Notes under the pieces: model-generated
Seen by the model: only the letters and a program-made list of their open reading frames with translations
Told to the model about the DNA's origin: nothing
Database searches by the model: none
IMG/VR virus record: IMGVR_UViG_3300030202_002850
Coordinates: 1-64,000 of that record
Source: an uncultured virus (IMG/VR IMGVR_UViG_3300030202_002850)
Lineage: Duplodnaviria > Heunggongvirae > Uroviricota > Caudoviricetes
Reading direction: 5' to 3' (one strand)
DNA length: 64,000 bases
Program-made: the position numbers and the translations under genes
Part shown: in pieces, positions 5,055 through 57,844 of the stretch
How the letters are laid out: each line of letters opens with the position of its first letter
How positions within the stretch are numbered: position 1 is the stretch's first letter

Positions 5055-5238
5055 CCCCATACTAATACAGGGATACAAGCTAGGGCTTCAACTCTAGCTA
5101 TTCCATTCGTATATTAACACATATAAATAGTTATTGACATGTGTTATTCAATATGCAATACTCTTTGTTGATGTACGAATGGAGTAGCTCGTAACCATGC
5201 TACCCCGATAAGTAATAATAAAATACACACAAAATATT

Positions 5239-6357
5239 ATGGCAAAACAAACAGCATTAGAAGCGATGACAGTTGATATCGCTACAGCTAAGAGAGCAGC
5301 AGCAGTTTGCTTTCAGAACAAACGCCCCTTCATTGTATGGGGAAAGTACGGATGCGGTAAGTCTCAGATGATTGCTCAACTCGCAGAGAGTATGAGTGCA
5401 ACTCTGTACGACTTCCGAACATCAGATAAGGAGCCGCCCGACTTGGCTGGACTCCCTGTAGCAGATCAAGTGAACCGATGTGTTCAGTGGCTTATTAATC
5501 ACGACACGATTCCTTGGAAGCGATACGATGACAAAGGCAAGCACATCAAACCTAAGTACAAGAGAGCTATTCTCTTCCTCGATGAGTTCGATAGGAGCAT
5601 GGTCGAGGTGATGAACGTGGCTCTTCAGATACTACTAGACCGTAAGGTTAATGGGCATGAGCTAGAGGATAACGTCCTTATATGTGCCGCTGGTAACGGT
5701 GAGTCTGACTCTGGCACTACACCTATCACTGGTGCAGCAGCTACTAGGATGACTCACATTTACATTGATCCAACATTGGATTCATCCATCAAAGGATTCC
5801 AAGAGTACGCAAATAACAAAGGCATGGCTCCTTGGTTGTCATCTTATGTAGGATTCCGCAAGGAAGAGATACAAGGAGATCAGTTCACATTCGTTGAACG
5901 TGCTGAGCCTACGTTTAGAACATTGGAGTGGGCGCATGACTTGATTGAGTCTTGTTATAAGATTGGCACTGACTGGGCAACTAGCCCGTCTGTTATGAAC
6001 TGTCTTGTGTACGGAACAGTAGGGCAAGTGGTTGGTCGTAGCATGATGGCATATCGCAAGATGTGTACTGAGTGTCCTCAACCTGACGACATCTACGATT
6101 CACCCCTTCAGACAAAATTACCTAAGGACGCTGGTGTTTACTACGCTACTGGTGTGGCGTTAGTGCAAGACATTAAACCTAAAGGCAAGTCTGAAGACAT
6201 GAGCAAAACCAAAGCTGCATGTAGATATGTAGGGCGATGGCCTGAGGAACAGCAAGCTACGTTCTTTCGCAGAGCATCTGAAGCCAAGCTGAAAGTTGCG
6301 GCGACACCTGAGTACAAGGCGTGGGAGAAAGAATATAGGTCACTGCAAAGCAAGTAA
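5239..6357 (+). CDS. MoxR-like AAA+ ATPase
   Basis: Walker A GKYGCGKS, Walker B ILFLDEFDR, sensor CAAGN, DLAGLP motif. Confidence 0.9.
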   Translation: MAKQTALEAMTVDIATAKRAAAVCFQNKRPFIVWGKYGCGKSQMIAQLAESMSATLYDFRTSDKEPPDLAGLPVADQVNRCVQWLINHDTIPWKRYDDKGKHIKPKYKRAILFLDEFDRSMVEVMNVALQILLDRKVNGHELEDNVLICAAGNGESDSGTTPITGAAATRMTHIYIDPTLDSSIKGFQEYANNKGMAPWLSSYVGFRKEEIQGDQFTFVERAEPTFRTLEWAHDLIESCYKIGTDWATSPSVMNCLVYGTVGQVVGRSMMAYRKMCTECPQPDDIYDSPLQTKLPKDAGVYYATGVALVQDIKPKGKSEDMSKTKAACRYVGRWPEEQQATFFRRASEAKLKVAATPEYKAWEKEYRSLQSK

Positions 6358-6375
6358 TAACTGGCCCAGATATAA
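6355..6375. repeat. 21-bp palindromic motif
   Basis: TAATAACTGGCCCAGATATAA at a stop codon. Confidence 0.9.
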
Positions 6376-6395
6376 CCCAATAACAATATACGATT

Positions 6396-7343
6396 ATGAA
6401 ATTAGTAACCAAAGACAATGTAATACTAAAGCGGTTCAATGAGAACTGCATGCTGGTTAAGATCGGCATCAAGCTCCCCGGCTCCAAGCAATTGATTGTA
6501 CGGGCGGCTCAAGAGGCAGCGAACACGTTCAAGGCTGACGCTGAATCAATAGACAGTCACATTCGCAAGTTCACAAAGAAAGACTTGTCAGCCGTGCAAG
6601 AGATTGCAACTCAAGCTAGGCAGAAGATTAAGTTCTTCACAAGTACATGGGATGATCATGGATGGCGCATCTGCAAGACAGAGTTCTACCCTGACCTATC
6701 CCGTGAGCTTGAAGAACTGAAGCTCAAGTTTGATGATGCAGTTAGTACCATAGTTAATGATAGGTATGAAGAGATCAAAGCTGACAGTCAACGCCGTGCT
6801 GGTGACTTGTGGGAAGATGTTAGATTCCCTGAGAAGGAAGAGTTCGCTACTCAATTCGACTTCATCATTGAAGTGGACGAGATAAAAGATCCTAAGGATG
6901 TGAAGATCAGTGGCCCTGCTGGACTAATGAAGGAAGTTCAGGAGCAGATGCAAAAGCGCAATGAGACAAAGCTTAAAGAAGCACAAACAGAAACACTTGA
7001 AAGGGTTAAGAGTGTGCTTGCTGATACTGTATCAAGGCTAAAGCATTACGATGCAGGGAAGGCTAAGTTTAATGACGCTAAAAAGAAAGGTGACAAACCT
7101 ACTAAGGTTAGGATATCTGACAGCGTTATTAATAATGTAGTCGAGGTTGGTAAAGTCATTAAGCAGATCAACCTAACTGATGATGAGTCTCTGAACAAAG
7201 CAGCCGACTCGTTAACAGAAGTATTCTCTCGCTTCCAAGGCGAGGACAACATGAAAGAATTAAAAGAGAATTCTAAGAAAAGAAAGGAAGTAATCAAAGC
7301 ATCAGAAGATGTGACCGAGGTTCTTCAATCAATCGAACTGTAA
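6396..7343 (+). CDS. DUF3150-like helical protein
   Basis: 315 aa, all-alpha, W-D-x-G-W-R and FP motifs; lies between a MoxR ATPase and a vWA-peptidase, the usual context. Confidence 0.6.
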   Translation: MKLVTKDNVILKRFNENCMLVKIGIKLPGSKQLIVRAAQEAANTFKADAESIDSHIRKFTKKDLSAVQEIATQARQKIKFFTSTWDDHGWRICKTEFYPDLSRELEELKLKFDDAVSTIVNDRYEEIKADSQRRAGDLWEDVRFPEKEEFATQFDFIIEVDEIKDPKDVKISGPAGLMKEVQEQMQKRNETKLKEAQTETLERVKSVLADTVSRLKHYDAGKAKFNDAKKKGDKPTKVRISDSVINNVVEVGKVIKQINLTDDESLNKAADSLTEVFSRFQGEDNMKELKENSKKRKEVIKASEDVTEVLQSIEL

Positions 7344-7363
7344 CCATATATCAATAACACACA

Positions 7364-8851
7364 ATGAACAAAGTAACAGAAGCAATCAACAACATAACTG
7401 AAGAGGAGTGGGCGGACTTACTCAAAACAGCTAAGTCTAAAGTTAATATTGGACACGACTATATATACACATCTCATCCAATAGGTGTTCCGTTCGTGGC
7501 CAAGTGGCAAGTCATACCTGACCCTTCAGTAGAAACAATGTGTACTGATGGTAAGACTCTGAGGTATAACCCTGAGTTCGCAAACAATCTGTCAGTCAAC
7601 GCAAACAAGTTTGTCATACTCCATGAAGCTGGGCATCTACTGTTTGCTCATCACCTGAGAAGAGAGGATCGCAATCCAGACTTGTGGAATGTTGCAGCAG
7701 ACTTGGCAATGAACAGCCACTTCGTCCCCTACATTAAACAGCTAGGAGTGTGGCATGAATTAGTAAATGATATTGGGATACTGCTACCCCGTGAAGGGAA
7801 GTTCACAAAGTTACCAGAGAACAAGTCAACTGAGTGGTACTACCATGAGTTAGAGATGGAGCTTCACGAACCTCCGCCTCCTCCGGGTGGTAGGCCATGC
7901 GATGACGGAAAGCCTGACGATGATGAGGGTAAAGGCAAGGGTGATAACAACGGAGATCCGAATGAACCTGAAGACTCCAAAGGTCAAGACCAAGACTCTG
8001 GTAAGGGCGAGAGCGGTAGCTCAAGTTCAAATTCTGGAAGCTCTGGCGGCAATGACTCTCCATCACAACCCAGTACCACTAAGTCATTAAGCGAGCGACT
8101 TAAAGATTACCTTGGCGATGAGGGTAAGATTGTTGGTCGTGTCGAGGACTCTGCGACCATGTGTGAAGAGGGCGCTGATGTTGCGGAGAATGAGTACCAA
8201 GAAACAGTATCCGAAGCAGTGGTTCTTATGAAGTCTCAAGGTCATGGCTTTGGCAACGAGTTGGACTTCCTTGAGGACATGCTTACACGAAAGGCAATCA
8301 ACGATGTGTCATGGTTGAAGAGGTTGTTAGTTCAGTATGCTCCGGGTGGACGCAACCATAAGAGAGTTAACAAGCGTTACTCATCTGGCGGTATCATCTT
8401 CCCTAAGAATGAAACCAAGGGTAGGAGTCACGGCCTTATCATGGTTGATACCTCTGGGTCTATGGGTAATGCAGAGTGTGACGAGGCATTTGTTCAGATG
8501 AACAAGATCATTCAAGAGTTCCCTCACACCAAGATAACAATGGTGCAGTGCGACACTGACATACATGAGGAATCTATACGAGAGTTCAGTCGAAGCGACT
8601 TACCATTACGAGTGCCTCGCAAATGGTACGGACGGGGAGGCACTGACATGGAGCCAGTATTAAAGTACGCTAAGGAAAACAAATACAAGTTTGATTGGGC
8701 GGTGTGCATCACTGACATGGAATGGGATTGGAAGAACTGTACTGATAGCGGAATAGTTACCAAGTTTGTTGCAGTTAATCCATACAAGCCGTTAGATATC
8801 AACATGCCGCAACGAGGGTACAGTTATGAAGAGGTTTATGTGAATGTATAA
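7364..8851 (+). CDS. DUF2201-type metallopeptidase-vWA protein
   Basis: TMCTDG, LHEAGH, WNVAADLAMN; acidic linker; MIDAS VDTSGSM, GRGGTD, ITD. Confidence 0.9.
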   Translation: MNKVTEAINNITEEEWADLLKTAKSKVNIGHDYIYTSHPIGVPFVAKWQVIPDPSVETMCTDGKTLRYNPEFANNLSVNANKFVILHEAGHLLFAHHLRREDRNPDLWNVAADLAMNSHFVPYIKQLGVWHELVNDIGILLPREGKFTKLPENKSTEWYYHELEMELHEPPPPPGGRPCDDGKPDDDEGKGKGDNNGDPNEPEDSKGQDQDSGKGESGSSSSNSGSSGGNDSPSQPSTTKSLSERLKDYLGDEGKIVGRVEDSATMCEEGADVAENEYQETVSEAVVLMKSQGHGFGNELDFLEDMLTRKAINDVSWLKRLLVQYAPGGRNHKRVNKRYSSGGIIFPKNETKGRSHGLIMVDTSGSMGNAECDEAFVQMNKIIQEFPHTKITMVQCDTDIHEESIREFSRSDLPLRVPRKWYGRGGTDMEPVLKYAKENKYKFDWAVCITDMEWDWKNCTDSGIVTKFVAVNPYKPLDINMPQRGYSYEEVYVNV

Positions 8852-8866
8852 CTGGGCCAGATATTA
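8846..8866. repeat. 21-bp palindromic motif
   Basis: GTATAACTGGGCCAGATATTA at a stop codon. Confidence 0.9.
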
Positions 8867-8885
8867 ACTTAAACAAAACAAAAGC

Positions 8886-9707
8886 ATGAACAATTATATA
8901 TCAAAATTCAACGGGACAGCGAACGATAATGCGTTTGCGAAAGTTGCAAGCGAGCTATGCAACGAGCTATCAATGCTCCTTTCTGTTCGCGGTATAGAGC
9001 CTGAGAGGACTGAGGTTTCTTCTAGTGATAGAGCATCTTCAATAGGATTCTATTGGGATGAGTTCGGTGATCCAATCATAGGTAATCACTGCTTGTTTCT
9101 TGACTACGATGAAGAGTCAGAAGAGTTGTCCTTAGGGTATGAATGGCCATCATTCATTGACCACATGGGTGCAACTAGAAGTTTAAGACCAACCGATTGG
9201 TATCAAACTTCACATAAACATGAGATGTCGGATGCTCAGAAGTTATTAAGTTCTGTCACTATTAGGAAATGGATAAGGAACCAAAGACATAAGATACCTT
9301 TAGCTCTTCTAAGTTCTCCTGAGAAATTAATTAAAAGAATAGAAAGGGAGCTTGATATCTATAAGGCATTTATAGATACGCTTATTCCTTATACTAATCA
9401 ACGAATTAAAAGCGTAGATAAGATAAAAGAATCATTAAAGAATAGGGATATGTGGATGCAAGGTTTCAAGCCAGAACACAACCACCACCACACCAGTAGT
9501 TGGTACTACCATGATTCTCTCGGAGAATCTGTGCAAGGATTTGTTGAGGTGGATGATGATTGGGCATCCAGTGAAGGCAAAGGAATAACTGAAGAAGAAA
9601 TGGAAATACGTTTTACATTTAAGGACGGTGCTGTTAGTAGGGAAAAGTATTCCAATATTGTTAGACAAGTAGCCAATATAATTAAGAAAGAAATTAAACA
9701 GGCATGA
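8886..9707 (+). CDS. hypothetical protein
   Basis: 273-aa ORF. Confidence 0.75.
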   Translation: MNNYISKFNGTANDNAFAKVASELCNELSMLLSVRGIEPERTEVSSSDRASSIGFYWDEFGDPIIGNHCLFLDYDEESEELSLGYEWPSFIDHMGATRSLRPTDWYQTSHKHEMSDAQKLLSSVTIRKWIRNQRHKIPLALLSSPEKLIKRIERELDIYKAFIDTLIPYTNQRIKSVDKIKESLKNRDMWMQGFKPEHNHHHTSSWYYHDSLGESVQGFVEVDDDWASSEGKGITEEEMEIRFTFKDGAVSREKYSNIVRQVANIIKKEIKQA

Positions 9708-10159
9708 AAAGAACAGAAGCAGTAACCGCTTTTATCGAGAAGCGTCAGAAAAAAGTAGGAACACTTGAGTCAACTTTATTAAATGATAAAGATTATGGAC
9801 TGAAGCTACATGGTAACACTATCGCAAAGTGGGATGGTGAAAAACTGTATGGCACATTAGCTGGTTGGCCTACTGTTACGACTCGCAAGTGGCTTAACGA
9901 CTTGTGTGATCAAGTATATAGTAGCGTGTCAGAAGATGTTGAGTTGTATGGAAAACCAAGTCTCTGTCCTAGCATGAAGCTAATTAAGAGGTGTTATTTC
10001 TATCAACATAAGCATGAACAGTATATGTCTAGAGTCATATCAACTGTAAGGAAAGCTGAACCAATTGAAATGAAATGCAAAGGGGTAGGCTACATACTTG
10101 AGCCAAAGCACGATGATAAGACCGTGCTGGATTTCAATGAATGGATGAGGATATTGTAA
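9704..10159 (+). CDS. conserved phage hypothetical protein
   Basis: LHGNTIA...AGWPTVTTRKWLN pattern seen in phage early proteins; ATGA coupling. Confidence 0.75.
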   Translation: MKRTEAVTAFIEKRQKKVGTLESTLLNDKDYGLKLHGNTIAKWDGEKLYGTLAGWPTVTTRKWLNDLCDQVYSSVSEDVELYGKPSLCPSMKLIKRCYFYQHKHEQYMSRVISTVRKAEPIEMKCKGVGYILEPKHDDKTVLDFNEWMRIL

Positions 10160-10374
10160 TGCCAGATGAGTATGTTATTAAACTAACACAAAGGGAAAAA
10201 GATTCTCTTAAATGCAAAACGTTTCAAGAGTTTCTGATAAAGGCTGAGAGCAACGGCCATCCTTACTGGACTCATGCAATTAAAAACATAACCGAACAAA
10301 TACATGAACAAAACAATAACAAAAAAGCGAAAGAAAAAAGATATTCTCAGCTTGAACTACAAGATAGTGTCTAA
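10159..10374 (+). CDS. hypothetical protein
   Basis: TAATG coupling at 10157-10161. Confidence 0.6.
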   Translation: MPDEYVIKLTQREKDSLKCKTFQEFLIKAESNGHPYWTHAIKNITEQIHEQNNNKKAKEKRYSQLELQDSV

Positions 10375-10843
10375 GAACTGCCCCTTCTTTCACAGCCTTA
10401 AAGGTTTTATTGAAGTGTGCGCTGACTGTGACGGGTGGAATGACGAGCAGCTAAATGATCTCTTTGGTATTAGCGTTAACGAGGTACATGAATTCTATGA
10501 TAAGTACACCATGCGGTCATGGAATGATGAGGTGCTTATCCCTATTGGGGTTTATCAGTTTGTTCTCTCTGCGATTAAGTCAAACAAGTATATATCTGAC
10601 CACACTGCCAACAAAGAAGACATTGCTATTAGGGTATGTACCGAAAGCATTAAGTCTGGGAGATGGTTTAAGACCGAGCCTGTACTGAAATACTTCTACA
10701 TCAGTAAAAATGCAAATGGCACGTTCACCTACAAGTTCAAGGAGTCTCAGTCAATTGTAATGAAGAGTGAAGTGCCTGAGTTATCAACAAGGTACGGAAC
10801 AGGAAGCATACACAACCAACAAGTATTAGTTAGAAACCCATGA
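10304..10843 (+). CDS. hypothetical protein
   Basis: 179-aa ORF. Confidence 0.65.
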   Translation: MNKTITKKRKKKDILSLNYKIVSKNCPFFHSLKGFIEVCADCDGWNDEQLNDLFGISVNEVHEFYDKYTMRSWNDEVLIPIGVYQFVLSAIKSNKYISDHTANKEDIAIRVCTESIKSGRWFKTEPVLKYFYISKNANGTFTYKFKESQSIVMKSEVPELSTRYGTGSIHNQQVLVRNP

Positions 10844-11067
10844 ATAAACCTAAACATGCAACTCACGTTAAACTGCAAACAGTTTATGAAGGAACCAATC
10901 GCGTTGCGATTGAAGATATAAAAAACATGGACTGCTTCAGGGGTTCTCCCGGTATTATTACATACTTGAGGCAGCTTAGAGGAAACAACTGGGAAGAGCT
11001 TGGCTCTTTTGAGTTCGATGGTAAATGGCCTTTAACTGAAAAAGATAATGAGACAACAACCAAATAA
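10840..11067 (+). CDS. hypothetical protein
   Basis: 75-aa ORF, ATGA coupling. Confidence 0.65.
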   Translation: MNKPKHATHVKLQTVYEGTNRVAIEDIKNMDCFRGSPGIITYLRQLRGNNWEELGSFEFDGKWPLTEKDNETTTK

Positions 11068-11221
11068 CTACGACTACGAAGTGAGTGACGCACTGCCTAT
11101 GAGTGAGCTTGGAGGAATCAAGGAAGAGGTAGAAGAGGGACTCAAACGGTTTGAGACTAAGCAAGCAAACAAAAAGCCCACATGGAAATGGGTTGAAGAT
11201 AAACCAAAAAAAAATGAGTGA
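11048..11221 (+). CDS. small hypothetical protein (57 aa)
   Basis: Manual translation MRQQPNNYDYEVSDALPMSELGG...KPKKNE*. Confidence 0.5.
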   Translation: MRQQPNNYDYEVSDALPMSELGGIKEEVEEGLKRFETKQANKKPTWKWVEDKPKKNE

Positions 11222-11708
11222 TGAAATACCAACAACTTATTGGGTAAAGATACAAGGAACTAATTACAGGCAACCGGGCTACTCTGAAGAGTTAACATAC
11301 AGACATCCGAGATATATTCATACTCTTGACTATCAAGTTGCTAATATTTTTACAGAAATAATTCCATATATTATAGCACCAACACAAGAGTTCATTGTTC
11401 ACCATGAAGCTCACCCTGAAATAATAAGGAAGACTGAAGCTGATCTTATTAAGTGGGGGGAGAGGCATTGTTTTATTACAATATTAATTAACCCGAAAGA
11501 CAATGAGTTTCTTAACTCTCCATTGCTATACAAGGAGAGATTCTGGAACCCTAATGTGTTTAATGGAATCGTTGATCAAGGAGATTACATAACACAAAAA
11601 CAGTGCGTTAAAATATTAAATCATTTGAGCATGCTGTATCCATTTATAGATGAGTACAGGATTAACCAAATGATTTCCGGGCGTAAGCCTATAGTGCAGT
11701 ACCAATAA
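11214..11708 (+). CDS. hypothetical protein
   Basis: Track ORF 11151..11708; likely ATG at 11214 (MSDEIPTT). Confidence 0.65.
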   Translation: MSDEIPTTYWVKIQGTNYRQPGYSEELTYRHPRYIHTLDYQVANIFTEIIPYIIAPTQEFIVHHEAHPEIIRKTEADLIKWGERHCFITILINPKDNEFLNSPLLYKERFWNPNVFNGIVDQGDYITQKQCVKILNHLSMLYPFIDEYRINQMISGRKPIVQYQ

Positions 11709-11720
11709 ATAAATAGACAA

Positions 11721-12539
11721 ATGAAAAACACAAATGAAAATAAAGTTAAACTAAAGTTAACTAAGGACTTGCTTACAGCGAGTTCTAAAATGACAGACAA
11801 CCAAGCTAGGTTCTTGGTAGACACCTATTACCAAATGCAAGACGCGAGGATTCGCTCCGCTGCACAAGTGAGGGGGTTGAAAGAAGGCAATGAGCCTTCA
11901 CATGTGATGAGTTGGATTGAAGATATTAATATCCAGCTTGAGGATAACATTAAAAAGGCGTTACATAAGTACGCTCTTGGTAATCCTGTTGGTCAGTGGT
12001 CTCTAGGAATAACTGGTATTGGCCCAGTGATATCCGCTGGACTTCTTGCTTACATAGACATTAAGCAAGCCCCTACTGTTGGACACATATGGCGCTACGC
12101 TGGACAAGACCCAACATGTAAATGGAATAAAGGAGAGAAGCGACCTTGGAACGCTAACCTCAAGACACTATGCTGGAAGATGGGCGAGTGTTTTGTGAAG
12201 GTTAAGAATAATGATTCCGATTTCTACGGAAAAATATTTGATGAACGTAAGATTTATGAGTCGGCTAACAACGAGAAGCTTATGTATAAATCCCAAGCTG
12301 ATGAGGGAGCTAAGCGCGTAGGAAAAACTACTGAAGCTTACAAGTCTTATAGTGTAGGTAAGTTACCCGCTGGTCATATCCACGCAAGAGCAAAGCGTTA
12401 CGCTGTGAAGTTGTTCCTTTCACATTGGCATGATATTGCTTACAGAAACCACTACAAGTCTGCACCCCCATTCCCGTATCCCATTGCACATATGGGACAC
12501 GCACACCAGATACCAGTACCAAATACAATTGCTGCATAA
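11721..12539 (+). CDS. tasA: TIGR-associated Nop-domain protein, TasA-like (IS110 C-terminal/Nop homolog with no nuclease domain)
   Basis: N-terminal helices (YYQMQDARIRSAAQ), then ITGIGPVISAGLLAYID, IWRYAG, PWNANLKTLCW, FYGKIFDERK, GHIHARAKRYAVKLFLSH; no DEDD RuvC, HNH or IS110 catalytic SG loop; dual-repeat array 290 bp downstream. Confidence 0.88.
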   Translation: MKNTNENKVKLKLTKDLLTASSKMTDNQARFLVDTYYQMQDARIRSAAQVRGLKEGNEPSHVMSWIEDINIQLEDNIKKALHKYALGNPVGQWSLGITGIGPVISAGLLAYIDIKQAPTVGHIWRYAGQDPTCKWNKGEKRPWNANLKTLCWKMGECFVKVKNNDSDFYGKIFDERKIYESANNEKLMYKSQADEGAKRVGKTTEAYKSYSVGKLPAGHIHARAKRYAVKLFLSHWHDIAYRNHYKSAPPFPYPIAHMGHAHQIPVPNTIAA

Positions 12540-12557
12540 TCCCTAATCAGATTACAC

Positions 12558-12830
12558 ATGAGTAGAAAAATATTATATCAAGCAAAGTTTCTTGGACAAA
12601 AAGGGACAGAATCTTATCATACTAAGCATTACTCGACTAAGGAAGAAGCTCAAGACGAGTTAATGAAAATGTGTGGAGACTTCGGGTATCTTGGAACAGT
12701 TACCTTAGATGAAGAGGAAAACTTATATCCGCCTTGGAAATTTCTTGGAGATAAATGCCAATCTGGAGATAGAAATGGCGGCACTGTTTCTGTGCATGAA
12801 ATAACTCTTGGAGTTTGGGAAGGGGTTTAG
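12558..12830 (+). CDS. hypothetical protein between tasA and the array
   Basis: 90-aa ORF; its TAG stop overlaps the first base of the array. Confidence 0.65.
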   Translation: MSRKILYQAKFLGQKGTESYHTKHYSTKEEAQDELMKMCGDFGYLGTVTLDEEENLYPPWKFLGDKCQSGDRNGGTVSVHEITLGVWEGV

Positions 12831-13550
12831 AGTCACGAGAAAAGAGAGAACCAATGATGTAGAACGAGTCACCGTTTTTGTGAGAACCATGAGTGAAGAA
12901 CGAGTCACTCTCAGTGAGAGAGCCAATAAAGAAGAACGAGTCACCACCGTCGTGAGAACCATGTATAAAGAACGAGTCAGTCTAACTGAGAGAACCAAGG
13001 AGATAAAACGAGTCATACTTATTGAGAGAACCACAAATCTAGAACGAGTCACACCCAATGAGAGAACCAAAATCAGAGAACGAGTCACTTTTGCTGAGAG
13101 AACCAATGATGAAGAACGAGTCACTTGATGAGAGAGAACCAAAATGTGAGAACGAGTCAGTCTAGCTGAGAGAACCAAGATACGCGAACGAGTTATGCAT
13201 TAGGAGTGTGCCACTATGAACGAACGAGTCAACAAACAGGAGAGTACCAATAAACCCGAACGAACCACTAACAAGGAGAGAGCCAACGTTTTTGAGTGAG
13301 TCACAACTGCTGAGAGTGCCAAAAATATTGAACGAACCATCAACAAGGAGAGAGCCAACGTTTTTGAGTGAGTCAAATCGCCAGATAAGAAACATCAAAG
13401 CCGAACGAGTCACCCTAGCTGAGAGAACCATGACTGATGAACGAACCACTCAATGCGAGAGAACCAAATTATTAGAGTGAGTCATATTGAGCGAAGGAAA
13501 CAAATATTTAGAACGAGTTATAAAATGTAAGAGAACCAAATAACTAGAAC
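12830..13550 (+). repeat. TIGR-like dual-repeat guide RNA array, 20 x 36 bp
   Basis: Unit GAGTCA-N8-GAGAGAACCA-N8-GAAC; unit starts 12830, 12866, 12902 ... 13370, 13407 (one 37-bp unit) ... 13515; spacers variable, repeats conserved. Confidence 0.92.
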
Positions 13551-13558
13551 GTTAAAAA

Positions 13559-13738
13559 ATGATAAAGAAAAATATAAAAGAATTAAGAATGGATGCTCTG
13601 AAGAATTGTGTTAAAACAGAGCAAAAAATTAACGGGTTAAAGAGGGCAGCAGTTAGAAAGTTACTGAGCGCCCTTAATCGTGAGGCTATTGCTAAGGTTT
13701 ATGCCATAGCAATAGACCGTAACAATCACATCAAGTAA
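13559..13738 (+). CDS. small basic hypothetical protein (59 aa)
   Basis: Manual translation MIKKNIKELRMDALKNCVKTEQK...IDRNNHIK*. Confidence 0.55.
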   Translation: MIKKNIKELRMDALKNCVKTEQKINGLKRAAVRKLLSALNREAIAKVYAIAIDRNNHIK

Positions 13739-13744
13739 GTAATA

Positions 13745-13773
13745 TTGACATGTATAAACTAATGAATTATTTT
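13745..13773 (+). promoter_or_regulatory. putative sigma70 promoter
   Basis: TTGACA (13745-13750), 17 nt, TATTTT. Confidence 0.35.
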
Positions 13774-14184
13774 AAATGTTCTGCTAGTGCTGTTGTGTGT
13801 ATTAAGCAGATGGTTACAGGGGCGGGACTTTTATGTCCCGTCCTTTTACTTTTTGCCACTGGCAATGACACTTCTTTTACCACTAAAGCAAGCTGGTATG
13901 GTAAGCCAGATGGTAAAGGGGGGTACGTTGATTGTGGTACTGTTACCGCATACGGCAAAAGATATGACTCATCGAAATTGGTTTGTGCTAGTTGGGAATT
14001 TCCCGAAGGAACCAAACTAAAAGTAAGCCTTGGCAAGTCAAGGCATGTCATAGTAACAGTTGCCGACAAAGGGCCGGGGCGTAGATTTGCTAAAGAAAGA
14101 AGAATTGATTTAAGCCTTGGCGCTTTCAGTAAGTTGTGCAGCCCTAGCGCTGGGTTAATCACAGTGACTGTTCAAAAAATTTAG
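13750..14184 (+). CDS. rlpA: RlpA-family (DPBB) lytic transglycosylase
   Basis: ASWYG, TAYGKRYD, CAS..FPEGTKLKV, VTVADKGP, RRIDLS.GAF; true start may be downstream (MVTGAG). Confidence 0.85.
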   Translation: MYKLMNYFKCSASAVVCIKQMVTGAGLLCPVLLLFATGNDTSFTTKASWYGKPDGKGGYVDCGTVTAYGKRYDSSKLVCASWEFPEGTKLKVSLGKSRHVIVTVADKGPGRRFAKERRIDLSLGAFSKLCSPSAGLITVTVQKI

Positions 14185-14255
14185 GATATGTACAGCAATA
14201 ATGCTTTACATTCCGCAATGAGAAACTACATTGTTTCTTTTCAGTAAAACAAATT

Positions 14256-15191
14256 ATGTCATTATTCAAACAAGCAAAACGATCAGACCGTAAACTTAGA
14301 ATGGCTATTGCTGGCGTATCAGGCAGTGGCAAAACCTTCACCAGCCTTGGGCTGGCTTCGTTACTGGGTGACAGTACAGCAGTAATAGACACGGAGCGAT
14401 CAAGCTCAGAGATATACAGTACTAAGTGGCCATTCCTTGTGTGCAACTTAGACTCTTATCATCCTCAGAAATACATTGATGCTCTTAATGAGGCTGCTAA
14501 AGCTGGCATTGAAACAGTAGTAATAGACTCACTGAGTCACGCTTGGTCAGGTAAGGATGGGGCGCTCGATCAAGTGTCAAAGGCTGGCAAATCATTCAAC
14601 GCTTGGTCTAAAGTGACACCCCTCCAAGACAAGTTAATGGATACGATATTAAAATATCCGGGCCATGTCATATGTACGATGCGGCGCAAGACTTCTTACG
14701 AGCAGTCAAGAGATGACAACGGCAAACTTTCCATCACTAAGACAGGGATGGCTTCTATTCAGAGAGAAGGAGTGGACTATGAGTTTGATATCTTTGCGAC
14801 AATGGATGGCCAGAACAATATGACCATAGAGAAGTCAAGATGTCCTGAGTTAAGTGGTGAAATATTTGCACACCCCGGAGAGGAAGTGTCTAACATCATT
14901 AAGAAATGGCTTGAAGGCGAGGGCCAAGCTTCACCTAAGCTTGAAAAACCTAAAGATAAAGATGTCCCTATGCCTACATCCCCGCCTAAATCTAATCTAC
15001 CTGAGAAGGCGGTCAGTGAATTAAGCAAGCTCTTTGCTGGCAAGGAGGATATGGTTATGAAGTTTCTAAAAATAAAAGGGCAGATAAAAGAAGGAGAAAC
15101 TTGGCAGCAAATGACTTCAGAGTACGCATCAAAAGTGCTTCAATCTCCGTCTGTCTTCTTGGCTTCTGTTGTGGCGCAATGCGATTCGTAA
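14256..15191 (+). CDS. Sak4-like AAA_24 ATPase (ssDNA annealing/recombination)
   Basis: GVSGSGKT, IDTE, VVIDSLSHAW, YEFD motifs. Confidence 0.85.
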   Translation: MSLFKQAKRSDRKLRMAIAGVSGSGKTFTSLGLASLLGDSTAVIDTERSSSEIYSTKWPFLVCNLDSYHPQKYIDALNEAAKAGIETVVIDSLSHAWSGKDGALDQVSKAGKSFNAWSKVTPLQDKLMDTILKYPGHVICTMRRKTSYEQSRDDNGKLSITKTGMASIQREGVDYEFDIFATMDGQNNMTIEKSRCPELSGEIFAHPGEEVSNIIKKWLEGEGQASPKLEKPKDKDVPMPTSPPKSNLPEKAVSELSKLFAGKEDMVMKFLKIKGQIKEGETWQQMTSEYASKVLQSPSVFLASVVAQCDS

Positions 15192-15198
15192 TTAAAAA

Positions 15199-16299
15199 AT
15201 GTCAAAAGGAGAAATACAAGAGCCTCCTGAGCAAGAGGCCGACGAAAGAGGAGGCAAGCCAAGTGCTTCAGGCATATCGAGAATCGCACTATGCCCCGGC
15301 TCTTTCCAAATGGAAAGCCAAGCGCCGCCGCAACCCAGTAGCCCTATAGCAGAACGGGGAACGCGCATTCATGCGTTCATGGAGGGCGATGATGTAGCTC
15401 TATCTAATGAGGAGCAAGCAGTAGCAGATGAGCTTAAAGAATTTGATTCACTAATACTGCATGACTGTGATGAGCTTATCCGTGAGGTCAGAATGTGGTA
15501 CGTTTGGGAAGATGGTGAAAAACTTTTCTCTGGTAAGCTGGATGTCGGAGGTGTTGATAAGCTTACTGGAGAGTCAGTGGTTGTTAACTATAAGACTGGC
15601 ATGGGTCAGGAGAATGCCAAAGAAAACTGGCAAGCTATGGCTGAGAGTGTACTGTTTCACGATCACTACAATCCGGGCAAGCCTGTCAGATATTGTTTTG
15701 TTCAGCCCGAATCTCCATACGGCAAGATGGTTTGCCATGTGTTCAGTGTTCCTGAGCTTGCTGCTGCTAGAAAAAAACTTCTTAAAGTTATAAGTCTTAG
15801 TAACAGTGATAACGCAAAATTATATCCAAGCGAGAAAGCCTGTAAGTGGTGTGATGCTGTTTCATTTTGTAAAGCTGCAAGCTGGACAGTTGAGAATGCA
15901 TTAGGTGAAGACGCTGGGCCTTTGGCTGATATCAATCCGCCAGACAGGGCCAACATACTTTCCACCCTTAAAGAAGCTAAAGAAAAAGCTGTAGCTGCAT
16001 ACGACTCACGGGCTGAAGAAGCAAGAGTGTTATTAGCAGAAGACTCAACTGCAATAACTGGCTGGAAGATCCGAAGCGGAAGATCAATAAGCAGAGTATC
16101 AAGCACAGAAAAAGCTTTTGCTGTTGCGAGAGAAGCTGGAGTAAGCACTGAAGATTTCCTAAAGTCATGCAGTGTTACAACTGGTAGGTTTAAAAAACTT
16201 GTTGGAGATCGCGGGGCAGTTAGCGATATGTTAATGAACCCCGCTTATGAAGATGTTATTAGTGTCACACAAAGTAAACCTAGTTTATTGAAATCATAA
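15199..16299 (+). CDS. DUF2800/Cas4-like PD-(D/E)XK nuclease
   Basis: SAS...CPGS, AERGTRIH, GKLD...NYKTG, Q, C-KWC...C motifs. Confidence 0.8.
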   Translation: MSKGEIQEPPEQEADERGGKPSASGISRIALCPGSFQMESQAPPQPSSPIAERGTRIHAFMEGDDVALSNEEQAVADELKEFDSLILHDCDELIREVRMWYVWEDGEKLFSGKLDVGGVDKLTGESVVVNYKTGMGQENAKENWQAMAESVLFHDHYNPGKPVRYCFVQPESPYGKMVCHVFSVPELAAARKKLLKVISLSNSDNAKLYPSEKACKWCDAVSFCKAASWTVENALGEDAGPLADINPPDRANILSTLKEAKEKAVAAYDSRAEEARVLLAEDSTAITGWKIRSGRSISRVSSTEKAFAVAREAGVSTEDFLKSCSVTTGRFKKLVGDRGAVSDMLMNPAYEDVISVTQSKPSLLKS

Positions 16300-16877
16300 T
16301 GGTAGAAGACTACCCCACTATATCTCTGGACTCAGGTCAAGTTGACCTTGCGATTAAGAAAGCTGAAGAACTCGTAGATCACTTCATGCCTAAGATTGTT
16401 AAAAGAAATAAAACAGGATCAACAATACCAGAGCAGACAGTTCAAGAACGTGTGAGTAGGTTATACAGAGACCAGCTTACAGGACAGTTATCTCAGTTAG
16501 CTATTACTCTTTACATGACAGGGACAGATCAAATGTACCGAGTGCAAAGGTGGAGTTGCATGCTCCATCCAGATAAAGGAGATGATGGTTATGATATACC
16601 GGGGCTTAGAATGGATGTTAAAGGAACTAGGATAAAGAAGGGCAAAGATCCAAGGGAATATTCCTTAGTCATTAGACCAAGGGAGAGGAAGCCTGAATGG
16701 ACATATGCTTTAGTGCTTGTTGAAGTGCGTGATGACAAAGCCCTATGTCATATTATGGGCTGGGCTACTGATGAAGAGCTAGAGGGTAACGTGCCTAGCT
16801 CTGGTATATTTAAGGGGGCGCATGTTCTTAGCTACAATAAGCTACACTCCCTGCCAAAATTTATTTGGGATTTATGA
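16299..16877 (+). CDS. PD-(D/E)XK-like hypothetical protein
   Basis: GDDGYDI...MDVK pattern and GWAT. Confidence 0.55.
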   Translation: MVEDYPTISLDSGQVDLAIKKAEELVDHFMPKIVKRNKTGSTIPEQTVQERVSRLYRDQLTGQLSQLAITLYMTGTDQMYRVQRWSCMLHPDKGDDGYDIPGLRMDVKGTRIKKGKDPREYSLVIRPRERKPEWTYALVLVEVRDDKALCHIMGWATDEELEGNVPSSGIFKGAHVLSYNKLHSLPKFIWDL

Positions 16878-19306: not shown

Positions 19307-20181
19307 TGAGAAAGAAAAAGACAAAAAACCTACCACAATTAATTAACGAGTACCTATCTTTCAAGATGGTAACTAAATCTAAAAACACTATAAACAATAT
19401 GGAGACAACACTTCTTCATTACGCGCAGTTTTGTTTAGACAGGAAGCGTCACCCCCTAAAAGAAGAAACAGTTTTTAAGTGGGTATCCAACCTTAGATTT
19501 GGAAGCAAGAAGAGAAAAGGTAATACAATAAACAACTATATATCTAGGCTTAAAACATTTCTTAGTTATCTAGTTAATGTCGGGTACATTGATTCAAACC
19601 CTGCCAAGATGGTTGACCTACTACCTCCAGAACACAAAGAGATAGTTGGGTTTAACCACAATGATGCTAAAATACTTATTCAGTATGCTGGTAAGCACAG
19701 GCACAGTAACTATTGGGTTCCGATGATACTACTTGGATGGCATTATGGTATGAGAATATCTGATTGCTCTCACATAAAACATGAAGAGGTGGACATGAAC
19801 CATAGACAAATTAAGTTTTTACCAAAGAAGCAAAGAAGAAGATACATAAGACTGCCTCTTCACCCCGACATTTACGATGCATTTAATAACGCTGAGCTAG
19901 GAGAAGGGGAGTATATGTTTCCAGATGCTGTCAGAAAGTACGAAGTTAAGACTTTAAGTTGTGAGTTTAAATCAATTATCAAGTCAGCCAAACTCCCAGA
20001 AAGCTATACATTCCATTGCTTGCGTCATGGAGCAGCTACTAACATGCTAAAGATGGGTATAAGAATGACAACCATTACCGAGATCATTGGTTGGTCTAGC
20101 CCTACAATGCTGTATAAATATATGGATACAGACCAAGAAGAAATGGATAAGGTTTTAGATATGAAATCTATTGCTGTTTAG
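19306..20181 (+). CDS. tyrosine recombinase/integrase (Xer-like size)
   Basis: SAM-like N-domain ending NPA; GMRISD (R), K, FHCLRH (HxxR), IIGWSS (W at the H/W position), YKY. Confidence 0.92.
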   Translation: MRKKKTKNLPQLINEYLSFKMVTKSKNTINNMETTLLHYAQFCLDRKRHPLKEETVFKWVSNLRFGSKKRKGNTINNYISRLKTFLSYLVNVGYIDSNPAKMVDLLPPEHKEIVGFNHNDAKILIQYAGKHRHSNYWVPMILLGWHYGMRISDCSHIKHEEVDMNHRQIKFLPKKQRRRYIRLPLHPDIYDAFNNAELGEGEYMFPDAVRKYEVKTLSCEFKSIIKSAKLPESYTFHCLRHGAATNMLKMGIRMTTITEIIGWSSPTMLYKYMDTDQEEMDKVLDMKSIAV

Positions 20182-23100
20182 CGACTAAGGTTTCTAGATA
20201 AATTTCTACTTAGGTTTCTTCCGGGTCTTCCACTAGAGCTAACTCTCCTAGTTGTTGACTCTCTGAAGACACTTCCTCCCCCTATTTGCCTAAGCCCTTT
20301 ATCCCAATCATCTAACAAATCTTTAACATACCTTAAATCTTCTGGGTTGTTAGTTCTTAACCCTTCGTAAAAAGCCCTCTTGGTTGGTGAGGATTTCCAA
20401 GCTCCACGAATAGGGCTTAACCCTCTAAGGGCAGATCTTATTTGCCTCCTTGCTTCATCCCTGTTCTTGTAAAGCTTTTGCTCTACGGCAATTTCAACCA
20501 TATAGTTAAAGGTTCGTTTAGCTTCTTTGAAGTTTCCATTACCAACATGCCCAGCCCATATCTTCTTAGGAGCAGTTAAAGCATTTGAGTTTCCTGTAGA
20601 AAACGGTGAACGAGTAAATGCTGTTGGTGACTTCATGTTGTCCTCCCTATTTAAAGTAAGTCTTCTGATCAGCCTCACCCCGTTCAAGTTCCTATTCATC
20701 CCTTCAGCATAAGGCATGAACCTAGTTACTGCTCTAGTAATAGGGAGAAAACTGTTTGCAAATTTAACACCATGCACCGACCAAGCATCTCCTTTAAAGT
20801 CTCCCCCTGCTACATCAGAAGCAAAGTGAACTACATCACCTATTTTACCTATTAAAAGATTGCCCGGAGTGTTAATGGCTCTACCCGGCAACCCAGTGAA
20901 GTAAGCATTCAAAGCCCCTCCAACGAATGGTACTGGCGTTGAAGCTAGCCCTAGATAAGACAATGCTTTTTCTTCCGTTGAGCTAGTCTCATTTGGCAGA
21001 ACAGTTATTCTCTGCCTACCAAATGCTACTTGCTCTACCTCTCGCATCAACATTTCAAACACCCAGTTCTCTGGGACAGCGGAACCTAATGCCATCCCTA
21101 TCCAAATCATTGAATTGAAAAACTCTCTAAGCCTACCAGCTTGACCTGACCTACCAAATGCTGCCTTAGCCCATACTGTTGCTGCATTAGCTGGCCAACC
21201 CATCAAAGGAAAGAACCATCTGGCTGCTGAGCTTGTCCTGAATTGAAGCGGTCTGTTACTTGGCGTTGCCATGTTAATGGTTGTCACCATAACTGAGGCC
21301 ATGCTGTCTCTTTGTGGAGCGGTAAAAAGATTTATATGGCGTGTGCTTTCGCCTGTTCTTTCAGCAGCTTCAAGCTTAGCCCAAAATTCTTTAACTGTTT
21401 CGTCGATGTTTGAAACCCCAGCCTTCGACGCAAAGTTTCTCATTTCAGAAAATGAAGCTTTGTTCCCATTTGTTAATTCTTCTGGTGTTATAAACTCATC
21501 AAGACTAACCCCTTCTTCTTTCCTAGCATAGTAAGCTTCTCTTGCTCTCTTTTCTAAATGATGAGCAACGTTATATCCTAGCTTAGCTAAGATGTTATTG
21601 CCGTATAAATCACCTAACCTTGGGAAGATTGGTTTACCAACAAGAGCTAAGCCAGACTCATACTGCCCCATTATTCCACCAAGTGTTCTAGCTAACAAGT
21701 TGTCGCTAGATTCTACTAGCCTTCCTCCTGTCTCCACAAACCTATCAAAGTTCCCAGCAGTTTCTGATGGATCAACGGGCATAGACAGCCCCCGCTGCGC
21801 CAACATCTCATACTCCCTGTTGCGTTGAGGTATAACATTTGCAATCTCTTCTGTTATAGGGTGCAGAAACCCTCTCAATATAGCGTCAGGTCTCCCTTTA
21901 GTTTCAATTCCTTTCTTAATTGCGCTGGGTAAACTCTTTGTAACGACACCTACAGTTGCGGCTTTGCCTCCGTAGTATCCAGTTTTAAGCGCAAGGGTCA
22001 GTGCTTGTTGTAATGTGTAAACCATTCCAATCGCAAAACCCTTAGGGGTTAAGACTGCACCATTACCAAGTAAATTATTGTAAGTTACACCACCGTGTAT
22101 AGGAGCTTCTGCTAAGTTTCTAGACAGTGTTAAGATAGACATCAAAACACCACCAATTGTAGATCTATAAAATCTTTCCCCGCCTCCCGGCGCTAGATCA
22201 GCGCTATACTCTGAGCTTCCTACCTGAGTAAAAGCTTTCTTGTAGCCATCAGAATACTTTTCAAGTAAGGCTATTTTAGATCTAATAAACTTCCTTACAT
22301 CTGGATATACCCCGCCAACTTTTATATCCATACCAAGCTCTTTTGCTATAGCTTCTTGAACCTTTCTGTTTTTCTTTCTTAAACCAAGTCTCTTAGCGTA
22401 CTTTTCTTCAAGCTTACCAATAAGATTTCCAGTGCTTAAATTATTTAACTCTTGAACAGCAGAGTCGATTGCCCGAACAACGTTAGCTGCTGGGCCAGTA
22501 GCTCCTTTAAATCCAAATCCACCAAACTCGTAATCATTATTAAACCCATAGTCGTAAAAGAAGTAAGGAGCTAATACATCTTTCCTTTGAGTTTCAAAAG
22601 GACTTGCACTCCTATAGTTCTGCACAGTTACAGAGCTTTCCCCCTCTGGTTCCTTAACCTCCTTGCCCATAACTTTCTCAAGATTATCAAGCACTGGGGC
22701 AATGTCTTCCATTAACATTTCTTTAGCTTTACTAACGCTTTCAAGTGATCCGATATCAGCTATCCTTTGAGCAACATAATCAGGGACTGACATATCAACA
22801 TCTTCGTGGCGTTTCTCCCTGACCTCTGCTGCTATAGTGTTATAAACAGATTCGCTTATCCCGTCTTCTTTAGTAGAGCGAACCCATTGCGGATTTCTAT
22901 CTCCTATAAAAGCTATTAAAGCATTTGATGTTTCTTCTGATTCATTAAATAATATATCGTACAGACTTGATTTAGGGCTATCCTTAAACTGTGCATACTC
23001 TTCTATTAAATTTATTCCTGTATCACTAAACCTTCTAGGCAACATCATCTTACCACGCTTAACTGGTAATCGCATAGTGCCAAGTATGCCTTTAATTTTT

Positions 23101-57619: not shown

Positions 57620-57844
57620 TCATGGTTCTGTTGCGTGGCAGTTATAACACCGATCTACCACTTCTATTGTTTTGTGAAAATCATCTAACTCTAACATCGT
57701 TTTAAACTCATGCTGATAATGGTGACACACAGCTATGTCTGATGATCTCTTAGCCTTACTAATTGCTCCCACATACATAGAATACAAGATACCTAACATG
57801 ACTATTACTATTAGTAGCTCAAGTATTGTGTGGGAGTTTTCCAT
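57620..57844 (-). CDS. prepilin-type N-terminal domain protein
   Basis: HTILELLIVIVMLGILYSM...AISKAK...AVC. Confidence 0.65.
   Translation of the reverse strand: MENSHTILELLIVIVMLGILYSMYVGAISKAKRSSDIAVCHHYQHEFKTMLELDDFHKTIEVVDRCYNCHATEP

Follow-up and report, generated by a model that had tools for sequence, protein, structure and literature searches.

The closest described relatives of the locus analysed here are the TIGR-TasA systems (FpTasA, Faure et al. 2025, PMC12045711; MbTasA, Xu et al. 2026 preprint, 10.64898/2026.09.09.750476), in which a solo Nop-domain Tas protein adjoins an array where edge and loop repeats alternate and each 36-nucleotide (nt) unit holds a pair of short spacers. 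In the available text of the preprint, MbTasA is an RNA-guided DNA binder and repressor, the one TasA for which guide-dependent binding and repression are known. Also close is the phage-borne SpTIGR-TasH system of Salicola phage CGphi29, for which the accessible part of Faure et al. gives 16 variable nt (8+8) in each guide RNA (tigRNA). We analysed positions 1 to 64,000 (the window) of the uncultured Caudoviricetes record IMGVR_UViG_3300030202_002850 from IMG/VR, a 71,220-nt virus genome contained in sequencing runs labelled as marine or seawater metagenomes, and focused on a repeat array that lies shortly downstream of a tas gene (Table 1). The repeats, the 36-nt units and the adjoining Tas, which matches TasH and TasR, bear out an earlier assignment of this array to TIGR, and the locus is an ordinary member of the known dual-repeat TIGR-Tas family. 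Comparison with its relatives shows that the whole unit (spacers A and B with the loop repeat between them), not the half-unit, is the main module gained, lost, copied and reordered, and that unit order is not conserved between relatives. Taken together, the locus is probably a dual-repeat TIGR-TasA system with a cassette-wise evolving array in a 71-kb marine phage.

Beyond the architecture just described, the locus shares with TIGR-TasA truncated edge repeats at both array ends, a box C (CCA/UCA) before each spacer and an extra covarying pair in the edge repeat. It differs in that its Tas is only about 20–25% identical to the solved Tas structures, its spacers are 8 nt followed by a near-invariant G in place of 9 nt, no terminator follows the array directly, and an open reading frame (ORF) of 90 amino acids separates tas from the array. 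SpTIGR-TasH gives the best sequence and fold match to the window Tas; however, TasH has an HNH nuclease and cuts DNA, whereas the window Tas has no nuclease domain. CRISPR arrays are likewise hypervariable beside a conserved effector gene, lose units through repeat recombination, hold older units with degenerate repeats and show near-total turnover at about 84% flank identity. In contrast, the window array has two alternating 10-nt repeats and split 8-nt spacers, lacks the single 25–36-nt repeat and the spacers of similar size of CRISPR-Cas, has no Cas1/Cas2 among the 14 neighbouring ORFs scanned, and differs from its relatives without a concentration of the changes at either end, with unit order not conserved. 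In box C/D sRNAs, too, a Nop-domain protein binds a pair of guides that C and D boxes flank, but TIGR has no K-turn/L7Ae module or methyltransferase, its guides target DNA, and its units stand head to tail.

Each of the 20 units comprises the edge repeat GAACGAGTCA, an 8-nt spacer A, the loop repeat GAGAGAACCA and an 8-nt spacer B, the two repeats being distinct, alternating and 10 nt each. Unit i starts at 12830 + 36(i − 1) as far as unit 16, which is 37 nt long through one added base. The array opens with GAGTCA, the last six bases of the edge repeat, directly after the stop codon of the 90-residue ORF, and closes with GAAC, its first four bases, 8 nt upstream of the ATG at 13559; truncated edge repeats of this kind at TIGR array ends are described in the available text of Faure et al. 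The repeat variants seen are GAGTTA, GAGTGTGCCA, (G)ATAAGAAACA, GAAGGAAACA, GAACGAACCA and GAGTGAGTCA. Units 13 (ctaacaag/acgttttt) and 15 (tcaacaag/acgttttt) are nearly identical, with an exact repeat of 34 nt within units 13–15, and there is a spacer A family in units 5, 10 and 17 (gtctaact/gtctagct/ccctagct) and a spacer B family in units 1 and 8 (atgatgta/atgatgaa). The sequence-only reading of this DNA had described the 20 units, these variants, the copied units and the spacer families, and all are present at 12830–13550. Its variable segment of 8 nt followed by an almost invariant G also stands, with G directly 3' of the segment in 37 of 40 cases, although spacers of 8 nt were known before, PMC12045711 already giving 16 variable nt for SpTIGR.

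The first spacer position is itself biased in all arrays, towards T or C next to the edge repeat and towards A next to the loop repeat (for the window, C in 11/20 and A in 14/20), and the functional repeat may extend one base into the ‘spacer’. A purine asymmetry between spacers A and B (0.43 against 0.60 in the window) is not general, with 0.50 and 0.55 over 219 units and a reversed sign in two related loci (L019 and L020). Five pairs of window spacers lie within a Hamming distance of 1, against 0.55–0.63 expected (0–4 of 5000 shuffles reach this), an excess that comes mainly from the unit 13/15 duplication and a cross match of spacer A of unit 2 with spacer B of units 13 and 15.

With the window Tas as query, we retrieved 28 loci (L numbers) from viral and metagenome collections, of which 18 were parsed, and all 18 carry a downstream array of the same two repeats. 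L009 and L025 match the window array half-unit by half-unit over their parsed parts (39 and 22 half-units). L001 and L013, at 98% Tas identity, have related but different arrays, L014 and L015 (92%) have a 37-unit array, and more distant loci (68–80%) have other arrays again; at the nucleotide level, tas of the window is 97.7% identical to that of L001 and 83.6% to that of L014. Contigs from sequencing runs (X numbers) extend the comparison. Those of X6 and X7, from two other studies, run from unit 14 into the second duplicate copy, and that of X4 skips 72 nt at the 34-nt exact repeat, through either genuine variation or collapse by the assembler. As for the two outcomes that the sequence-only reading had named as fatal to it, the arrays of L001, L013 and L014/L015 are not identical to that of the window, and L009, L025 and the X6 and X7 contigs show that the array is not an artefact of a single assembly.

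Gain and loss of units among relatives, which the same reading had proposed to look for, were found, and in the clean gap runs as whole units. Alignments of half-unit tokens gave 21 clean gap runs (nine between the window and L001, two between L001 and L013, eight between L019 and L008, two between L005 and L023), and each of them opens on a spacer A and closes on a spacer B; no run has the B..A (loop-to-loop) register. The window–L013 pair, which would count these three arrays a second time, does not enter the total; its gap runs are of the EL type bar one LELEL/L run, where the orthologous unit 1 differs by more than two mismatches. The last two units of the window–L001 alignment, with 7- and 9-nt spacers, are ambiguous. 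Differences between the window and its 98–100% relatives lie all along the array (L001 units 1, 3, 9, 15, 17 and 19; window units 10, 14 and 15), and L001, L012 and L013 have one extra unit relative to the window at the very first position. The duplicated unit 13/15 is present as one copy in L001 and L013, and its L014 orthologue reads GAACGAACCA tcaacaag CAGAGGGCCA acgccttt GAGTGAGTCA. Unit 10 is confined to window-type arrays, and the X7 contig skips exactly these 36 nt. Unit 14 (13298–13333) and unit 17 of L001 and L013 (5406–5441 in L001) occupy the same slot and share a deviant edge repeat, GAGTGAGTCA, and the loop repeat GAGAGTGCCA, but their spacers differ at 5/8 and 3/8 positions where the flanking units differ by 0–1; either the spacers were replaced inside a kept frame or the likeness is coincidence.

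Spacers A and B of a unit travel together. Across 14 arrays, with comparisons inside the window clade excluded and the window, L001 and L013 counted separately, spacers matching at ≤1 mismatch had a matching partner across the loop repeat in 45/87 and 49/91 cases (94/178, about half), but a matching neighbour across the edge repeat in only 5/85 and 5/89 (10/174, about 6%). Between 11 non-redundant arrays, under a column-permutation null, we found 33 whole-unit matches against 0.76 expected (0/2000), whereas half-only matches numbered 32 against 23.4 (113/2000). Neither A-to-B cross matches (16 against 21.5 expected) nor swapped units (0 against 0.65) were enriched between these arrays. Within arrays, whole-unit duplicates numbered 3 against 0.13 expected (0/2000) and cross-type A–B matches 4 against 1.89. 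The B spacer ‘atagaatt’ (L001, L019/L020) does not travel with its loop variant.

Shared units also stand in scrambled order, for example units 1, 6, 9, 10, 14 and 17 of L019, which correspond to units 7, 23, 10, 2, 19 and 4 of L020. The 12-kb X7 contig, from a different study and with flanks differing at 4 of 454 nt, has, relative to the window and L001 units, the order 1, an unread unit, 6, a ‘ttcattgg’ unit, 7, 2–5, 8, 9 and 11–13. The unread unit lies in a stretch of 44 nt, a length that would accommodate the remainder of unit 1 (its second half) and one more unit, for which L001 unit 3 is the simplest candidate. Every new junction in this contig needs real 31-mers, because 31 nt cover two spacers.

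The deviant repeats take on a different meaning once units are read from the middle of one edge repeat to the middle of the next, the 5' end being the last six bases of the preceding edge repeat and the 3' end the first four of the following one. Five combinations of termini were tabulated, GAGTCA with GAAC in 198 units, GAGTCA with GAGC in 23, GAACCA with GAGT in 9, GAGCCA with GAGC in 8 and GAATTA with GAAT in one. Over 226 non-redundant units, pairing of repeat positions 3 with 8 (p3–p8) and 4 with 7 (p4–p7) is seen in 449/452 cells, where shuffling gives 431.6 on average (0/5000). In the edge repeat, p3–p8 is paired in 223/226 units (A-U 186, G-C 14, G-U 23) and p4–p7 in 226/226 (C-G 219, U-A 6, U-G 1); in the loop repeat, p3–p8 is G-C in 207/226 and p4–p7 is mostly unpaired. 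Compensatory changes on both sides keep the pairing (A-U to G-C, C-G to U-A). For the 42 informative units, 81/84 cells pair within the unit, against 100/126 when both partners come from one edge repeat, so that the second is part of the adjacent guide. This agrees with the extra covarying pair between different edge repeats of one tigRNA that the available text of PMC12045711 describes. The cassette boundaries and the truncated array ends both fall at p4|p5, an indirect indication, from sequence, that the array may be processed into 36-nt tigRNAs by cuts midway through the edge repeat.

Seen in this way, GAACGAACCA and GAGTGAGTCA (GAAC|GAACCA and GAGT|GAGTCA) are junctions of normal units with a variant type, represented by units 13, 15 and 18. 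We considered the ‘hybrid’ repeats as recombinants of the A and B repeats or as products of decay, and both are ruled out by the compensated unit termini. Conservation tells the same story. Only units 11, 13 and 15 of the window, all deviant, are recognisable in L014, and unit 11, with four repeat deviations, is found at ≤2+0 spacer mismatches in L001, L013, L014, L018, L003 and L020, as well as, under a 9-nt parse, in L002; it is conserved in the 70–80% relatives and recurs in four other clades. Over 208 units, repeat deviations average 1.98 where the unit is conserved in another clade and 1.02 elsewhere (one-sided Mann–Whitney U test, p 7e-4), and 13/28 units with at least three deviations are conserved in another clade compared with 10/68 with none, families recurring across arrays in these counts. 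Conserved units do not sit further towards the distal end (relative position 0.43, other units 0.47, not significant). The sequence-only reading had called these repeats drifting and hybrid, but they are not products of decay; as part of the explanation favoured here, units with deviant repeats are likely to be old, conserved and structurally compensated guides, not decaying ones.

The repeats are conserved while the spacers are replaced. Orthologous spacers of the window and L001 differ at 5 of 224 positions, and retained spacers mutate at the background rate. In L014, whose flanks are 82–84% identical to those of the window, 14–15 of the 20 units would be expected to be recognisable if spacers did no more than mutate at the flank rate, and three are (P about 1e-7 to 1e-8). 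Recombination of existing halves plus point mutation is for this reason not the whole story, and because most units turn over faster than point mutation allows, new cassettes must enter from elsewhere, either by de novo acquisition or from a large shared pool. TIGR systems have no known adaptation gene (PMC12045711), and none was recognised among the neighbouring genes scanned here. The proposal that recombination and point mutation drive the diversity thus survives in part: recombination at repeats appears the best explanation for the gain and loss of units, but it cannot give the turnover. A second proposal, that the tas-proximal end is best maintained, applies to the window, where 15/19 internal repeats in units 1–10 are perfect against 4/20 later (Spearman rho 0.50, p 0.0012), but not generally. 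Of 14 arrays, 6 have a significantly positive gradient, 1 has a significantly negative one and 7 have none, the arrays with perfect proximal and deviant distal repeats being those of the window, L001, L013, L002, L019 and L003.

The sequence-only reading had put forward a model in which half-units are duplicated and reassorted through the repeats and diversified by point mutation, with the tas-proximal end best maintained; it was weighed here with an intact proximal and a decaying distal end. In its favour is a pair of chimera-like units in the window (2 against 0.09 expected, 47/3000): spacer A of unit 1 is one mismatch from that of L001 unit 15 and its spacer B one mismatch from that of unit 8, and spacer A of unit 10 is one mismatch from that of unit 5 and its spacer B two from that of L001 unit 19. 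Pooling the window with L001 and L013 (25 distinct units) gives 5 half-only pairs against 0.89 expected (6/3000), about three of them independent, although the window alone has only two same-type half-only matches (units 1/8 and 5/10) against 0.66 (262/2000), which is not significant. Within the 11 arrays half-only matches number 8 against 3.22 (37/2000, p about 0.02), and L014 carries an identical 10-nt spacer A twice with different B partners (5111–5148 and 5618–5655), spacer length thus being variable within one array. The gradient of repeat quality in the window would also suit this model. However, the whole-unit signals between and within arrays are far stronger, every clean gap run is a whole unit, A–B cross matches show no enrichment, the ‘hybrid’ repeats are compensated termini, and the conserved units are the deviant ones; reshuffled halves with mutation at 5/224 cannot replace 17/20 units at 84% flank identity, and the gradient is absent or reversed in 8/14 arrays. 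Half-unit reassortment is thus weakly supported and whole units are the main module, and A/B reassortment, which had been proposed as a check in relatives, shows as a weak excess both within arrays and between them. As a general account of the array, we regard the half-unit model as quite unlikely.

CRISPR-like polarised acquisition, with new perfect-repeat cassettes entering next to tas, old mutated ones lying distally and interior differences being deletions, accommodates the gradient in the six arrays named above, the extra first unit of L001, L012 and L013, the deviant repeats that mark conserved units, and the fast turnover. It sits poorly with the spread of differences along the whole array among 98–100% relatives, the position of conserved units, the many unshared L014 units on both sides of conserved ones, the different block order in X7 and the want of a recognised adaptation gene among the neighbours scanned; we consider it unlikely. 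It is extremely improbable that assembly or chance produced the relatedness and the duplications, or that the array is a dead relic. The data are wholly metagenomic and X4 collapses 72 nt at the exact repeat, but the same array occurs, over the parsed parts, in L009 and L025, the X6 and X7 contigs cross unit 14 into the second copy, the shuffle tests exceed chance, and compensatory covariation, conserved units and an intact, conserved tas gene argue for selection on function. Several points nevertheless weigh against our own explanation. The modest half-only excess within arrays and between them (p about 0.06 for the latter) and the repeated L014 spacer leave room for loop-repeat exchange as a regular process, and the strict unit register could reflect pure selection instead of a mechanism. 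The linkage counts and those of deviation against conservation repeat conserved families across arrays (pseudo-replication), the parser requires 7–10-nt spacers and near-consensus repeats and dropped part of L004, every comparison rests on assembled metagenome contigs, and the X7 order comes from one Logan contig whose long-range order could be a strain mosaic. Finally, natural targets did not rise above control level in the genome or its relatives' flanks, as set out below.

Under the cassette-wise explanation, the array would supply 36-nt dual-spacer guide RNAs to a nuclease-free TasA dimer, spacer A pairing with one target strand and spacer B with the other. By homology with tested TasA systems, the complex would most likely bind 16-bp DNA sites and block transcription without cutting. 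The cassette would correspond to the processed tigRNA, namely the 3' part of an edge repeat, A, the loop repeat, B and the 5' part of the next edge repeat. Recombination between edge repeats would delete, duplicate, move and probably exchange cassettes, and either the mechanism or selection would hold each A to its original B and the two ends of each unit, 5' and 3', to one another. Loop-repeat recombination, giving A/B chimeras, would be rare, with units 1 and 10 as candidates. There is also a slim chance that arrays grow and are reshuffled through a Tas-dependent or RNA-templated process which inserts cassettes at any of their edge repeats, and not through homologous recombination plus selection, a reading suggested because the moving cassette coincides with a processed tigRNA that has its own paired ends and is bounded at the processing site. 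If true, cassette insertion would be a route of adaptation without Cas1.

The window array with its 98–100%, 92% and 70–80% relatives thus makes a natural series, in which the arrays are highly dynamic, the processed guide would be the module, deviant repeats would mark old and structurally sound guides, and a source other than mutation would supply spacers. The available text of Faure et al. speculates that small repeats minimise recombination. Our literature search found no published analysis of TIGR array turnover, preprint supplements aside, and the view that TIGR arrays are rapidly changing strings of cassettes, each the size of a tigRNA, would bear on a question left open by both primary papers.

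For the target searches, the top strand of a target was predicted as spacer B followed by the reverse complement of spacer A (B–rcA), derived from the 8-nt 3' overhang and the ‘C-5 rule’ in the accessible part of PMC12045711. Across the 71,220-nt genome, no unit of the 20 had a B–rcA or rcA–B site at ≤1 mismatch, and at two mismatches there were 3+4 matches. A scan of 219 distinct units against the genome and the relatives' flanks (190 kb), with gaps of 0–2, gave no exact match and 9 one-mismatch matches against 8.25 in re-paired controls. The target of units 13 and 15 was considered as an ‘R-F/L-S-C-stop’ gene end and rejected: among viral sequences 118 loci, falling into 70 flank clusters, were matched, and the frame was open in only 7.

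A scan with unit 11 (14 specified bases) gave at least 119 loci in 68 clusters, and among the matches listed one cluster of five represents a class I ribonucleotide reductase alpha gene whose product reads ...SSMNLLHY... at the site. In L014, the variant of unit 11 matches this site at 16/16 positions (L152, record G001, near 9120; L150, L151), and the variation of the unit 11 B–rcA sequence among relatives corresponds to would-be synonymous Leu codons (CTA/CTG, CTG/TTG). In this collection, chance would be expected to yield such a match to a 16-mer, and by the controls the two are not separable, so we treat the site as a lead only. The window's own variant of unit 11 was not in such a gene among the matches listed, and the window genome has no ribonucleotide reductase gene of this kind. 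Other units were not enriched on those five contigs (15 matches at ≤2 mismatches against 18.0 in controls), and the unit 13/15 pattern occurs there at two mismatches in 2/5 only, not at the gene end.

Table 1. Positions of the array, of units discussed in the text and of adjoining genes in the window
Feature	Coordinates	Strand	Basis
Dual-repeat TIGR array, 20 tigRNA units	12830–13550	+	36-nt period (Tandem Repeats Finder, TRF), in-register parse
Unit 1 (cgagaaaa / atgatgta), chimera-like	12830–12865	+	Spacer comparison
Unit 10 (gtctagct / agatacgc), chimera-like, window-type array only	13154–13189	+	Array alignments; X7 contig
Unit 11 (GAGTTA tgcattag GAGTGTGCCA ctatgaac GAAC), most conserved unit of the clade	13190–13225	+	Matches in relatives
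Units 13–15; 13 and 15 a whole-unit duplicate with variant termini GAACCA...GAGT	13262–13369	+	Repeat parse, contigs
Unit 18, second case of the variant terminus type GAACCA...GAGT	13443–13478	+	Repeat parse, terminus table
tas gene, 272 amino acids, TasA type (Nop domain, no nuclease domain)	11721–12539	+	phmmer, profile, AlphaFold2 (AF2), Foldseek
90-amino-acid ORF between tas and array, outside the conserved system	12558–12830	+	Presence/absence in relatives
59-amino-acid ORF, start 8 nt 3' of the array; start likewise right after the L001, L013 and L014 arrays	13559–13738	+	

The Tas protein matches TasH (21kl, 3.3e-12) and TasR (9mty, 4e-12) in a phmmer search of the PDB, and a profile of 12 Tas relatives gave 5.1e-21 for TasR 9mty and 2.5e-13 for TasH. 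Its AF2 model has a mean predicted local distance difference test score of 84 and is nearly all helical, with just two 3-residue strands at the C-terminus. The top ten Foldseek hits are all TasH or TasR chains (E about 1e-6), and the next folds are IS110-family recombinases; sequence and fold matches together cover TasR 9mty and TasH 21kl, 9w03 and 9w04. PHROG 4285 is matched at 9e-48. No Pfam family matched at E ≤ 0.01, hence no HNH or RuvC family, and because only about 70 residues precede the part aligning to the Nop domain and no nuclease family was detected, we assign the protein to the TasA type. A C-terminal PYPIAHxGHxH stretch is conserved, with G259, H260 and H262 invariant. Its Tyr and His are seven residues apart, as are Y289 and H296 of SpTasH, the processing dyad of that protein in the available text of PMC13421893; the likeness is one of spacing alone, the stretch being aligned to TasH in neither search. 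Against cultured phages, tblastn with Tas gave distant matches only (Salicola phage CGphi29 at 27.6%) and blastn gave none.

The 90-residue ORF sits on an insertion of about 281 nt. The window, L009 and L025 carry it, as do contigs from runs X4, X6, X7 and X11, and its stop codon runs into the bases just ahead of the array. L001, L012 and L013 lack it, and their truncated edge repeat comes 6 nt behind the stop codon of tas. The ORF has no match in Pfam, PHROG or the cultured-phage database. Since the start of the 59-residue ORF adjoins the array in relatives too, the array lies within a string of genes with no terminator directly 3' of it. The nearest terminator-like hairpin (13818–13845, 11 pairs, 7 of them G-C, with a T-rich tail) is about 270 nt 3' of the array, in the first 100 nt of the ORF at 13750–14184 (DPBB/lytic transglycosylase domain), and the real start of that gene may be further downstream. 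No Cas family was found among the 14 neighbouring ORFs scanned (5239–16877).

Rfam gave nothing at gathering score. A sub-threshold match to the archaeal C/D-box sRNA family sR3 was seen inside the array, at 13102–13171 (18.7 bits against a gathering score of 41, E 0.047), which fits the published kinship of tigRNAs with box C/D RNAs but by itself is no evidence for it. Elsewhere in the window there are two very long ORFs, at 20178–29660 and 57844–63504 (minus strand), of 3160 and 1886 amino acids.

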